DNA of 64,000 bases from Orbicella franksi (GCA_964199315.1 OZ116710.1:6262001-6326000); one strand, 5' to 3'; shown: positions 25,994-29,260, counted from the stretch's first letter. Notes: a model not told the origin generated them from the sequence alone. Translations and numbers: made by a program.

Positions 25994-28900
25994 CTACGGT
26001 TGCGTACTAGTCTGCATAAAACGAGTCAGGGTCATTTGCTTCTTGGATGGATGCGCCTGGCTTTGAAAGTGCGGCCTCTTCACTGACGTAGCTGCTACAG
26101 GGTTGTGAGCTCGAGCAATGCCTGGGGACGGTGGACAGATAGCTTCCACGTCGTCATTCGGAATGTACATTGGTGTCTTTGGTGCCGCCGACCAACATTC
26201 TTCGTCGTCTTCGTCTGAGCTCCTACTTCTGGCAGGCAGATTTGCTGGACGCTGGCTGGGTGGGAAGACTCTCACTGGCAGCGGAGAGAACAGGTCTCGT
26301 ATGAAATTCACGCAAGAACGGTCTACCAGCTCGTTGCTAAGGCAGAGCCTCTTGCGTTCTGCCAGGGCAGCCGGTAGTTTCAGCGTTCCATGACGCTCGT
26401 GATAACAGCGCAGTTTTTCGCAATTGATTTCCAGGAGACTTTGCATCACTCTTCGTTCTTCTTCGTCTCTTGGATCTTCCATTCTTTCGCTTTGCTCAGC
26501 CATTTCCTTCTCCATAGCTAAAAGCCACGGCTTCCCAAATGTTGTTCTGATCCTTTCCTGTTCCTGATCTTCTTGAAAGGCAGCGAGGTCCCTTCGAATC
26601 GGTGTGGGCAGCGGCTCGTTATGGTCGTGCGGGAGCAACGACACGTGCTCCACCGACACTCCCCTCGTTTGTAAGAAGTGTTGCCTCTTCTTATAGCACC
26701 TTTCTTCAACCCTTTTCAGCCTTTCCTTTTCAGCGAGATGACTTTCTAACATGTGGCTCAGTTGGCGGTGACGTAGAGAGCCAGGTGAGCATTGTGCCAG
26801 CCTAGCTTTCAAGGTCGTCAGGGTCTCGTCTTCATCGGAATCGCCGACATCTTCAATGGCGTCCTCTTCAGAGCTTTCTTCTCGGGATTGCGGTTCTGTC
26901 AGAAGGCCGCAACTCTGTTCTCGTCTACAATCGCCCTGGGCGGTTTCGTCGACTTCTTCGTCTATTAAAGAAACGCTCAAAATGTTGCGCAACTCCTCCT
27001 CAGGCATACCACTTTCGTGCACAGTGGGCATTGTACTGGCCTGACTGCTCGGGCTGTCTCCTACGATATTGTGCGCCCACACAATGCAATCCATAGCATG
27101 TTTCCTCAGCCACTTGTTTGCTTCAGGTTCGACACGAGGAAGACTCTTGAAGTGGTACTTGCGCAGGCGTTTGTCCATAGCTTGATTGTGAACTGCACCA
27201 AAATCCATTTCCACCTGGCAAGTTATGTACATGGTCGCAGTGCAATGGAAACCTTGAACCTTTTTCCACTTCGCGTCGTGCGACGTGAAGCCCCCTTGAC
27301 ATATGATTTTCCAGTCATCTATGTCGAGCAGGGTGGCATATGCCTCGTCTAGGAAGATAACCTCTGTCAGGTTGTCGATCATAGCCTTGTTGAAACTCTT
27401 TTGCTTCGTGACGCGAGCAATTCGGCTTAGGGGAATGATCTGAAAAACAGGTGAGAAGAGGCTGGTCTTTCCGCTGTCAGCTGAGCCAATAGCACACAGC
27501 ACAGGCTGTTTGTGTTCTTTGGGACGGAACAACGCCAGGAAATCTGCACAAAACTGCCGAATTTCATCTTCTGTTAGGCTGTTCCTTAGGATTGCCTCAA
27601 AATATCTTGGCTCCGGGTCCTTGAGTCGGTCGTAGTCCACAAACGCGCGTGGAGTTGTGAGACCCTTCTGTTGAAAAGAGCCAAAACAAAAGCACATCAG
27701 ACAGTGCTACAGATCGTAAAGATTGGGTTTGAAAATTTGATTGTATCTTCTTATTTAAATGTTAAAACAGTCCAGTGTATTCTTCTCACCTGAGATTCTG
27801 AGATAATCCCTTGGACGAACGACCCAGAGGAAAAGCTCCAAAACCACCCGTCTTGTACTTCGATCAGGTCTCTCTCAATCTTAATTTGGCGTATGAAAGA
27901 GCTTTCTGGCTCGCTTAGTATGGGCAGAACACGTTGAATATGCTGGACCAGACGGTCTTTGAACGCTTCGTTTCCCATTAGGCTGTGGAGGAACGTTTTC
28001 ATGGTACACAGATACTGGAACGTGAACTGCGATTTGGCCGCCAGTTTGTACACCTCGCCGCGATACACAGCATACTGCAGCTGTTTCATCACAATTTGTA
28101 TATCGTTGCACAGGACTGTTACTGGACAGGATAGGGGTTTGTGCGGCGGATCTGGTAGTGCTGTCTGCGATGTACTTTGCAGGTTGTTATCAAATCCAAA
28201 GGTGTCTAACACGAGACCAGCTCGGCGTAATTCCGAAACGGATGCTGCCATCATCGTTTGAAAACTCTCAAGAACGACACGAAGGCGAACGACATTTTCC
28301 GTCGGCGCTGACTCTTGGGATTCTTCGTGGAAGTCACCATGAAGCTCCTCTTGCAGAGCCCTGCCAATCAAAACAAAAGGTTTTGCTTACGTAAGGCAAT
28401 GCAATATCTCCCTGGTATTACTTTGTGAAAGTGAACTGCTGAAATCAAACTCGCGATGTTTTGAAAATGAGAAGATAAAAATTGATCAATTATCGATAAT
28501 CGAATAACAGTCTCTTTTCACCGGGCAATGAAGCATGATTACTTTGATTTTTCAATGATGAATAGCATTTTTTACCTTTCTGACTATTTATGTTTGTTTA
28601 TTATATATTTACTTTCATTAGCGTGCAATTTAACAGAAATTCAAAGAATATAAATTGGTCAAATTAATCTACTCACCCGAGGCAATGCTGGTACGATGAC
28701 TCCACTAGTTGCATTAAGCAGAGGTTTTTGTGGTCCTTAAACACTTGACACAGCTGATTCAGGTTATGACAGCAGTTTTTCTTTCGTGACGCCCTTGATG
28801 CATAATATTCCAAACCGCAACTTGCGACAGCTCTTTGGATTCTAAGTGCATTAATGACCGAGCCATTGTTTGTTTGGCAAGCCACCCAGTAAGATATGGC

Positions 28901-29260
28901 TGGGAATGTTTGCTTTCCCGGCGATGAAAGCTGAGACGCATTGACGGGCGATTCGTCATTCGATTCGTCACTCTCTCTGGTCTCCTGCAATTGTGGCCTT
29001 TTTCGCTTCTTGCTGTCCAATGTTGACGTACTTATCGCCGAAAAAAAGAAGCAAATTTCCGCCAATTTTGACAAGGTTAAATGGCATTCGTCGCGTTTCT
29101 CGCATATCCAGTTCCATGCTCTTTCTATTTCGGCGTCGCTAACCCGCCAAACGCACTTAAAAGCAACAACCGAACACAGCTTTTCAACCCTCGCAACTAT
29201 CTCGCACTCCGCCTTATCTCTTATTGCCTTGCTATTTAACTGAGAGCAAGGTTTGCTCAT
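25994..29260 (-). CDS. Three-exon D5-like / SF3 helicase, 942 aa (exons 29260-28677, 28360-27790, 27667-25994)
   Basis: GT-AG introns with matching phases (GG|GTGAGT to CAG|G, phase 2; CAG|GTGAGA to CAG|AAG, phase 0); 2829 nt gives 943 codons. D5_N-like DLIEVQDGWFWSFSSGSF, Walker A GSADSGKT, Walker B VIFLDE, motif C-like YITCQ, C-terminal QMTLTRFM. Confidence 0.8.

Follow-up and report, generated by a model that had tools for sequence, protein, structure and literature searches.

A 64,000-nt stretch of the Orbicella franksi genome (GCA_964199315.1 OZ116710.1:6262001-6326000; "the window", to whose full length all positions refer) contains a transposon in which a likely tyrosine recombinase gene is paired with a predicted spliced helicase gene, and which is inserted into simple-sequence DNA. 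A preliminary description had been concerned with the helicase gene; its observation was confirmed and its interpretation partly supported, and the finding is larger than that description, since it now takes in a partner gene for a recombinase with a Myb domain, the inverted ends of an element, its target in repeats and a candidate origin. We consider it well supported that this is a microsatellite-targeted coral recombinase transposon which carries an initiator-type helicase.

The element is delimited by 15-bp terminal inverted repeats (Table 1), with an 8-bp satellite and the 6-bp direct repeat TCCTCC on both sides of it, and the window copy is the one in which both ends are seen together. 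Related left ends were found in loci L006, L013 and L016 and looser ones in L035/L037, which gives left ends at four independent sites (the window, L006/L016 with a shared flank, L013, and L035/L037 with a shared flank), those outside the window following TTC, TTTC and TCA repeats, respectively. Right ends at two sites, the window and L003, enter pyrimidine repeats; the L003 end is that of the window, but its flank is a different microsatellite. The divergent lineage represented by L035/L037 lies in (TCA)n and not in a pyrimidine repeat, and the target preference may differ by subfamily. When joined, the two ends would place their 15-bp arms on either side of an 8-bp spacer, as in the sites used by tyrosine recombinases, for which 11–13-bp arms around 6–8 bp are typical according to PMC3212892. 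There are two genes only between the ends, with the other open reading frames (ORFs) of at least 100 aa overlapping them; no capsid or packaging genes were found among the ORFs between the element ends, and Rfam gave no match in 22,900-30,000. Recombinase matches were present in 17 of the 37 sampled helicase loci, many of which derive from few assemblies and are not independent, and were on the opposite strand every time; when only loci with at least 600 nt past the projected helicase end were counted, the fraction was 13/15.

The partner gene is likely to encode a tyrosine recombinase, judging from an alignment read by eye which gave the signature R301, K327/K332, H396xxR399, H426 and Y435, with the R, K and HxxR residues kept in L035/L037 at 40–56% recombinase identity. 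The gene is uninterrupted in L001, L002 and sequencing run X5. The N-terminus of the recombinase carries a C2H2-like motif and the C-terminus a Myb domain which passes the Pfam cut-off (E 9.7e-07), with TRF2 and TRF1 as best solved-structure matches (E from 0.001). The Atlas look-alikes of the recombinase, which are leads only, include DUF3435 (0.88) and a chordate-dominated cluster, and no relatives were found among phage records. Repeats of GGGCA/TGCCC with a 10-bp spacing were observed at 23,714-23,784 and in matching regions of L006, L013, L014 and L016, 90–200 nt upstream of the recombinase start.

The helicase gene starts at an ATG at 29,260 on the minus strand, and its exons (584 + 571 + 1674 = 2,829 nt) comprise 942 codons and a stop. 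The joining of three separate ORFs into a 942-aa protein by two GT-AG introns with matching phases, as proposed in the preliminary description, agrees with the coordinates, the sums and the homologues, with splicing being predicted. Intron 1 has the donor GTGAGT after 28,677 (phase 2) and the pyrimidine-rich acceptor TTTTGTTTTGATTGGCAG preceding 28,360 (where phase 2 is required), and intron 2 has the donor GTGAGA after 27,790 (phase 0) and the pyrimidine-rich acceptor CTCTTTTCAACAG preceding 27,667 (phase 0). Among 120 homologues of helicase exon 3, junction 2 was crossed colinearly by 72 (both exons were matched in 73) and junction 1 by 33 (both exons were matched in 34), and 62 and 28 of these, respectively, are not NCBI models. 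Exon 2 continues into exon 3 in a single uninterrupted frame in genomic loci L024 and L031-L033, as does exon 1 into exon 2 in L030, and chance splice sites were rejected because homologues and uninterrupted genomic loci cross both junctions. All seven NCBI models of Oculina patagonica compared, which are automatic models from the same 90% cluster, have the exons in colinear order with junctions at these positions, and six of the seven share the start of this copy. The GT..AG of intron 2 is kept at the same place in L001, L005, L006, L010, L012 and L013 (122–384 nt), and its splice sites are degraded in L009, while both introns are retained in the contigs of run X5 and in L001-L003. From these sequence comparisons we infer that the helicase transcript is spliced at both junctions. 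The ten proteins in which intron 2 of this copy is present group together in a single clade (SH-aLRT 95 in a quick tree of 49 rows), and the intron gains in different element lineages look independent. Other lineages seem to have introns elsewhere, within the exon-3 match of L024, L025, L031 and L035, and many homologue ORFs begin near exon-1 residue 167.

The assignment of the protein as a D5-type superfamily 3 (SF3) helicase without a recognisable primase, both parts of which had been proposed before, is supported by SF3 motifs, profiles and fold matches that agree. The residues of motifs A, B, B′ and C and of the arginine finger are nearly invariant across an alignment of 46 rows, of which 25 match DUF5906, 24 Parvo_NS1 and 19 PPV_E1_C at E<=0.05. 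Pfam gave a weak Parvo_NS1 match for exon 3 only of this copy and no match for exons 1-2, PHROGs gave no match for five pieces from the window and primase-helicase-type matches only for distant relatives, and a PDB sequence search returned P-loop noise only. An AlphaFold model of the homologue P0039 (953 aa, predicted local distance difference test (pLDDT) score 80) begins with an N-terminal alpha/beta domain and a D5_N-like domain, which are followed by the ATPase and then by a helical domain, and ends in a disordered tail; its best matches are D5-type primase-helicases, those listed from the PDB being SaPI5, poxvirus D5/E5 and African swine fever virus (ASFV). The D5-like fold was matched at E 2e-07 upward in the PDB and at E 6e-11 upward in BFVD, and the best viral fold matches are the D5 helicases of large viruses. 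For the D5_N-like domain the Atlas gave a lead with a score of 0.92 and D5_N on 22% of the members.

The N-terminal domain, folded alone from the homologue P0304 (pLDDT 86), is predicted to have an HUH-type fold without the HUH or tyrosine motifs. Of the ten best matches in the VIA fold search, seven were HUH Rep or origin-binding domains, and 16 such domains occurred among the best 50; the highest-scoring of them had Z 7.0 (root-mean-square deviation (rmsd) 3.2, 110 aligned) and Z 6.9 (rmsd 3.3, 103 aligned), below the caution line of Z 8 under which a common arrangement can explain a match. Rank 1 was SIRV1 ORF119, which we take to be a Rep, and the HUH-type matches included redondovirus, nanovirus, circovirus, parvovirus, Helitron and SV40 large T; BFVD rows were mostly unnamed (best E 7.9e-04). 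The HUH metal motif (HxH/HxQ) is present in 0/37 rows and the catalytic tyrosine motif YxxK in 0/40, with the Lys itself invariant. No conserved DxD/E motif was detected in the aligned N-terminal strands and no archaeo-eukaryotic primase (AEP) occurred among the 50 best VIA rows, with a derived palm fold being compatible with the fold search. The simplest reading of the model is that of a non-cutting origin-binding domain as in papillomavirus E1 and polyomavirus large T, which have an HUH-fold origin-binding domain lacking the catalytic motifs. The suggestion in the preliminary description that the ~195 aa of exon 1 may be an origin-binding module has held for the type of predicted fold and not for its limit, as the domain runs into exon 2.

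At the other end of the protein is a motif resembling the PCNA-interacting-protein (PIP) box, which had been reported together with the exon-1 motif KKRKRP, and both were found in place. From two helicase searches 174 proteins were collected, 131 of which reach the C-terminal domain; these rows are kin and the following counts are of non-independent events. The core [ILMV]xx[FYW][FYW] is present in the last 25 residues of 108/131 homologues versus 1.0% of internal windows or shuffles, a relaxed Q/N form in 82/131 versus ~0.3%, and the strict Q form in 32/131 versus ~0.1%, with the rest of the tail being otherwise unconserved around the motif. The conservation of the motif, put forward earlier as a check, was thus observed. 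Common PIP boxes have an aliphatic residue at position 4 and aromatic residues at positions 7-8, and lie at the end of the protein behind a run of basic residues; in this copy the Q, L and F of the consensus reported earlier are present, and position 8 is Met. The tail may bind PCNA. The proposed basic nuclear localisation signal KKRKRP likewise exists in this copy and is not conserved: a basic K[KR]x[KR] is found in the exon-1 loop of only 9/34 rows, and KKRKRP was rejected as a family-wide signal, versus 110/131 rows for the last 60 residues. A second motif, acidic-[FW]-aliphatic-T(P), was noted at ~26,210-26,160 (minus strand) in the disordered tail and in 87/131 homologues, which is a raw count without background. 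When P0003 and P0455-P0460 were compared with the window helicase, P0003 was 61% identical overall, yet the last ~70 residues are nearly the same, and the Oculina models are 97–98% identical in exons 1-2 with a different tail, QKKITAIF. This disagreement between tail and body identities suggests swapping of tails between elements.

An array of GTTCC/GGAAC pentamers near the left end is a candidate for either an origin or recombinase accessory sites. Copies are present in 7/7 left-end regions, at 11–32 per region versus shuffle means of 1.3–3.4 and maxima of 5–8, and the 1-kb bin holding the array is the only such bin among the window's 64. A long hairpin near the right end is a weaker candidate and was rejected as main origin, since it is MITE-like (miniature inverted-repeat transposable element) and largely missing in L003, where 141 nt are absent; its inner part is inverted in L001 and L002, and the hairpin is possibly an inserted MITE. 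Within 100-300 of L001, where the inner part is inverted, 31 of the 39 changes are A>G, with A changed in 16/20 cases after T and in 0/8 after G, which is the pattern of ADAR hyper-editing. Three reads of run X23 at 29,738 end in a stretch of similar appearance, and together with the A>G pattern they suggest transcription of the hairpin into a double-stranded RNA.

Table 1. Coordinates of the element and its features in the window
Feature	Position	Strand	Remarks
Left flank	22,953..23,019	+	short (TTCCCTGC)n-type simple repeat, ends in TCCTCC at 23,014-23,019
Whole element	23,020..29,939	.	6,920 bp between 6-bp direct repeats
Left terminal inverted repeat	23,021..23,035	+	15 bp; likely recombinase binding arm
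GTTCC/GGAAC pentamer array	23,188..23,654	.	23 copies, several inverted pairs; includes a 63-bp tandem repeat
Tyrosine-recombinase-type gene	23,870..25,566	+	convergent with helicase; the window copy has a frameshift near 25,205
Helicase exon 3	25,994..27,667	-	SF3 ATPase, helical domain, disordered tail
PIP-like motif	26,012..26,044	-	KKQMTLTRFMQ (Q1, L4, F7, M8); 26,015-26,038 = QMTLTRFM
SF3 arginine finger	27,181-27,164	-	exon 3
SF3 motif C	27,232-27,215	-	exon 3; Q where N is usual
SF3 motif B′	27,310-27,290	-	exon 3
SF3 Walker B	27,358-27,344	-	exon 3
SF3 Walker A	27,487-27,464	-	exon 3
Helicase intron 2 (predicted)	27,668..27,789	-	122 nt, GT-AG, phase 0; clade marker
Helicase exon 2	27,790..28,360	-	end of N-terminal domain and D5_N-like domain
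Helicase intron 1 (predicted)	28,361..28,676	-	316 nt, GT-AG, phase 2
Helicase exon 1	28,677..29,260	-	most of the predicted HUH-fold domain, and KKRKRP
KDH motif	28,738-28,730	-	exon 1, N-terminal domain
PAISYW strand	28,903-28,886	-	exon 1, N-terminal domain
KKRKRP	29,011-28,994	-	exon 1
Long hairpin	29,702..29,864	.	69-nt arms, z -13.6
Right terminal inverted repeat	29,924..29,938	+	15 bp; same end in L003
Right flank	29,940..30,680	+	TCCTCC at 29,940-29,945, then long 8-bp satellite

A profile of the helicase matched 1,044 representatives at E<=1e-10, and the named homologues are all anthozoan (Oculina, Porites, Acropora, Montipora, Desmophyllum, Nematostella and Actinostola), and no relative was found in three scans of IMG/VR. 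Five Oculina models are identical at 931–935 of 936 residues and are located on four large contigs, and recent spread is indicated because these intact helicase models are near-identical. The earlier argument that an intact frame suggests recent activity thus applies elsewhere in the family and not to the window copy, of which the recombinase is frameshifted. In runs X5-X8 and X15-X20, five organism labels and coral metagenomes hold ~0.9 of the sequence words of the helicase gene; if the five labels are different species, this would suggest horizontal spread.

We lean, with modest confidence, towards a division of labour in which the recombinase excises and inserts the element and the helicase copies it with host PCNA and polymerases. 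In this reading the tyrosine recombinase would release the element in circular form and integrate it at microsatellites, with its TRF-like Myb domain perhaps helping to choose the repeat targets, and the helicase would act as an initiator in the style of E1 and large T, binding the GTTCC array and unwinding the element, while its tail would recruit host PCNA and thereby the host polymerases that copy the element; the preliminary description had suggested recruitment of host PCNA and Pol delta. As the helicase is presumed unable to nick or prime, replication would be of the theta type with host primase, and amplified circles could raise the copy number, turning cut-and-paste into a net gain. 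A further step, that the element is a capsid-less integrative replicon of animals, a two-gene nuclear "plasmid-transposon" which excises, multiplies in circular form from an iteron origin of its own by means of an E1/large-T-like initiator derived from a D5 helicase, hijacks PCNA and reinserts in microsatellites, is put forward tentatively and we hold it to be doubtful.

Several observations weigh against this reading, starting with the N-terminal domain: the 16 HUH-type VIA rows (Z 4.8–7.0, spanning approximately residues 30-250) are all under Z 8, Thg1 palm folds provide three of the top 10 matches and are tied with the HUH folds, a Foldseek-led second search gave mostly ferredoxin-like transporter domains, and the near-invariance of K188-D189-H190 (40, 39 and 37 of 40) is odd for a dead nuclease. 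With respect to the tail, the F-M form of this copy has no second aromatic residue and belongs to the 23/131 without the core, position 1 of the 108 core motifs is Q in 32, R in 27 and K in 19, which makes other partners possible, and no PIP-like motif is present in the printed tails of distant relatives (such as P0327, P0360, P0362 and P0369). The GTTCC pentamer was picked after viewing the loci in which it was then counted, and the array adjoins the recombinase gene, which it could serve or bind instead. The recombinase itself has no Pfam or PHROG recombinase match, and the loci are of limited independence. Junction reads at both introns had been proposed as a check of splicing, and no spliced read is listed in three thin polyA runs (n=0, 35 and 30 reads). 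Finally, circle junctions, empty sites and replication intermediates did not turn up, no direct search for them having been made.

Transposition might alternatively be coupled to replication forks without an episome, with the helicase unwinding the integrated copy for copy-out or the tail tethering the complex to forks; forks stall at microsatellites, and in that case the role of the tail would lie in the targeting or timing of insertion and not in running an origin. The simple-repeat targets and the location of the array at the recombinase end agree with this, and PIP boxes are known on transposases such as Pogo, but an origin-binding-type fold followed by D5_N and an SF3 ring is the layout of a replication initiator, and the recombinase has a DNA-binding Myb domain of its own, which makes fork coupling rather unlikely in our judgement. 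It is improbable that the element is what remains of a reduced polinton-like virus, or a satellite of one, representing the end module alone and depending on a helper virus for replication and spread. Such a mobile end module, described in the part of PMC11296320 covered here, does consist of a primase-helicase and a tyrosine recombinase beside inverted repeats, and both the large-virus D5 helicases among the fold matches and the occurrence of ~0.9 of the words under five organism labels and in coral metagenomes would suit a viral origin; against it stand the two genes only between the ends, the lack of a relative in IMG/VR, and the introns and PIP-like tail, which suit the nuclear host machinery and not a virus factory.

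The near-invariant KDH, together with S77 (32/34 rows) and S202 (37/40), would fit an N-terminal domain that is an active non-HUH nuclease or strand-transferase, using KDH, a conserved Ser and Tyr/Phe for rolling-circle or rolling-hairpin replication with the flip-flop hairpin as origin, and the inner part of the hairpin was indeed found in two orientations. However, neither an HUH nor a YxxK motif is present, the hairpin is MITE-like, seen only in near-identical copies and largely absent in L003, and assemblers can flip such hairpin segments, so we regard an active nuclease as highly improbable. The variable position 1 of the tail motif (Q in 32/108) allows for another reader of PIP-like motifs, of which the Rev1 C-terminal domain and Mlh1 are examples, with a tie to slipped-repeat repair; the aliphatic position 4, aromatic positions 7-8, terminal site and preceding basic run are as in common PIP boxes, and we give this alternative hardly any weight.

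Some CryptonV families insert in microsatellites, according to the part of PMC8869645 consulted, where a Repbase report dealing with elements from cnidarians is referenced. Because the coral element shares all three features that can be compared, namely the tyrosine recombinase, a cnidarian host and microsatellite insertion, it is probably a Repbase CryptonV, an assignment made by described features. The texts covered, which do not include the original report (Kapitonov & Jurka 2012, Repbase Reports 12:2034), make no mention of a CryptonV with a helicase, inverted ends or a Myb domain, and the name is merely listed or used as a label in the covered parts of PMC4455052, PMC5753468 and PMC13465017. 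Cryptons of types A, F, I and S, as described in PMC3212892, likewise encode a tyrosine recombinase and are proposed to pass through a circular intermediate, and their ends carry short direct repeats (4–6 bp, matched here by TCCTCC in the window, the only copy with both ends). They differ in lacking terminal inverted repeats, which are 15 bp long in the coral element, and the animal (A/I) recombinases lack a C-terminal domain whereas the coral recombinase has the Myb domain; the word "helicase" occurs 0 times in the main text of that paper.

Among replicons, papillomavirus E1 and polyomavirus large T share with the coral helicase an HUH-fold domain without catalytic motifs (predicted in the coral protein) followed by SF3, and use host primase and polymerase, and the polyomavirus origin is a pentamer array; unlike these, the coral helicase belongs to the D5 type and has a D5_N-like domain, a long helical C-terminus and a terminal PIP-like motif, and the element lacks capsid genes and would integrate by its recombinase. 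The D5-type primase-helicases (poxvirus D5/E5, SaPI5 and ASFV) gave the best fold matches to the central part of the protein, whereas the coral N-terminal domain matched HUH folds, with no primase among the 50 best VIA rows. The end module of polinton-like viruses (PMC11296320, in the part covered) also combines a D5-like helicase and a tyrosine recombinase beside inverted repeats, but in the coral such a module is the whole element, without capsid, packaging ATPase, protease or recognisable primase, and is predicted to be spliced and microsatellite-targeted. Helitrons and Replitrons are transposons of eukaryotes that also possess a Rep-fold domain, with the transposase of Helitrons at VIA rank 6 (Z 6.3, rmsd 4.5, 129 aligned), but they transpose by an active HUH nuclease, whereas the coral element lacks those motifs and has the recombinase as its likely transposase. 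Neither the helicase and the motif in its tail nor the array was found described in the literature searched, which was mostly judged from abstract openings, and the element is not described in the parts covered of PMC11071296, PMC10871703 or PMC13465315; the supplements of PMC3212892 and the Repbase papers lie outside this negative result and may bear on novelty.

The surroundings of the insertion contain three related NACHT/NPHP3_N-WD40 gene copies (~400-4,660, 9,062-16,310 and 35,998-40,203), of which the first two look decayed or fragmented, forming an immune-receptor-like cluster around the element. In addition, there is a weak HEPN_Swt1/DUF4559-like ORF at 32,213-33,094, a reverse-transcriptase ORF in two frames at 48,513-50,316, and two short ORFs that by eye look like transposase fragments (18,825-19,268 and 46,869-47,324). 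The NACHT-WD40, HEPN-like and reverse-transcriptase ORFs were rejected as cargo, as they lie outside the element ends.

The excision and reinsertion ascribed to Cryptons do not alone explain how they gain copies, and the combination of an initiator-type helicase, a candidate origin and a PIP-like tail offers a testable answer to this. The family is large and has been recently active in reef corals, and it provides a compact animal recombinase which is apparently repeat-targeting, as well as introns which were apparently gained separately in different lineages. If the element does prove to be a capsid-less replicon, it would represent a mode of transposition new to the DNA elements of animals, and would link, as a living intermediate, replicons that encode a Rep with the small DNA tumour viruses.

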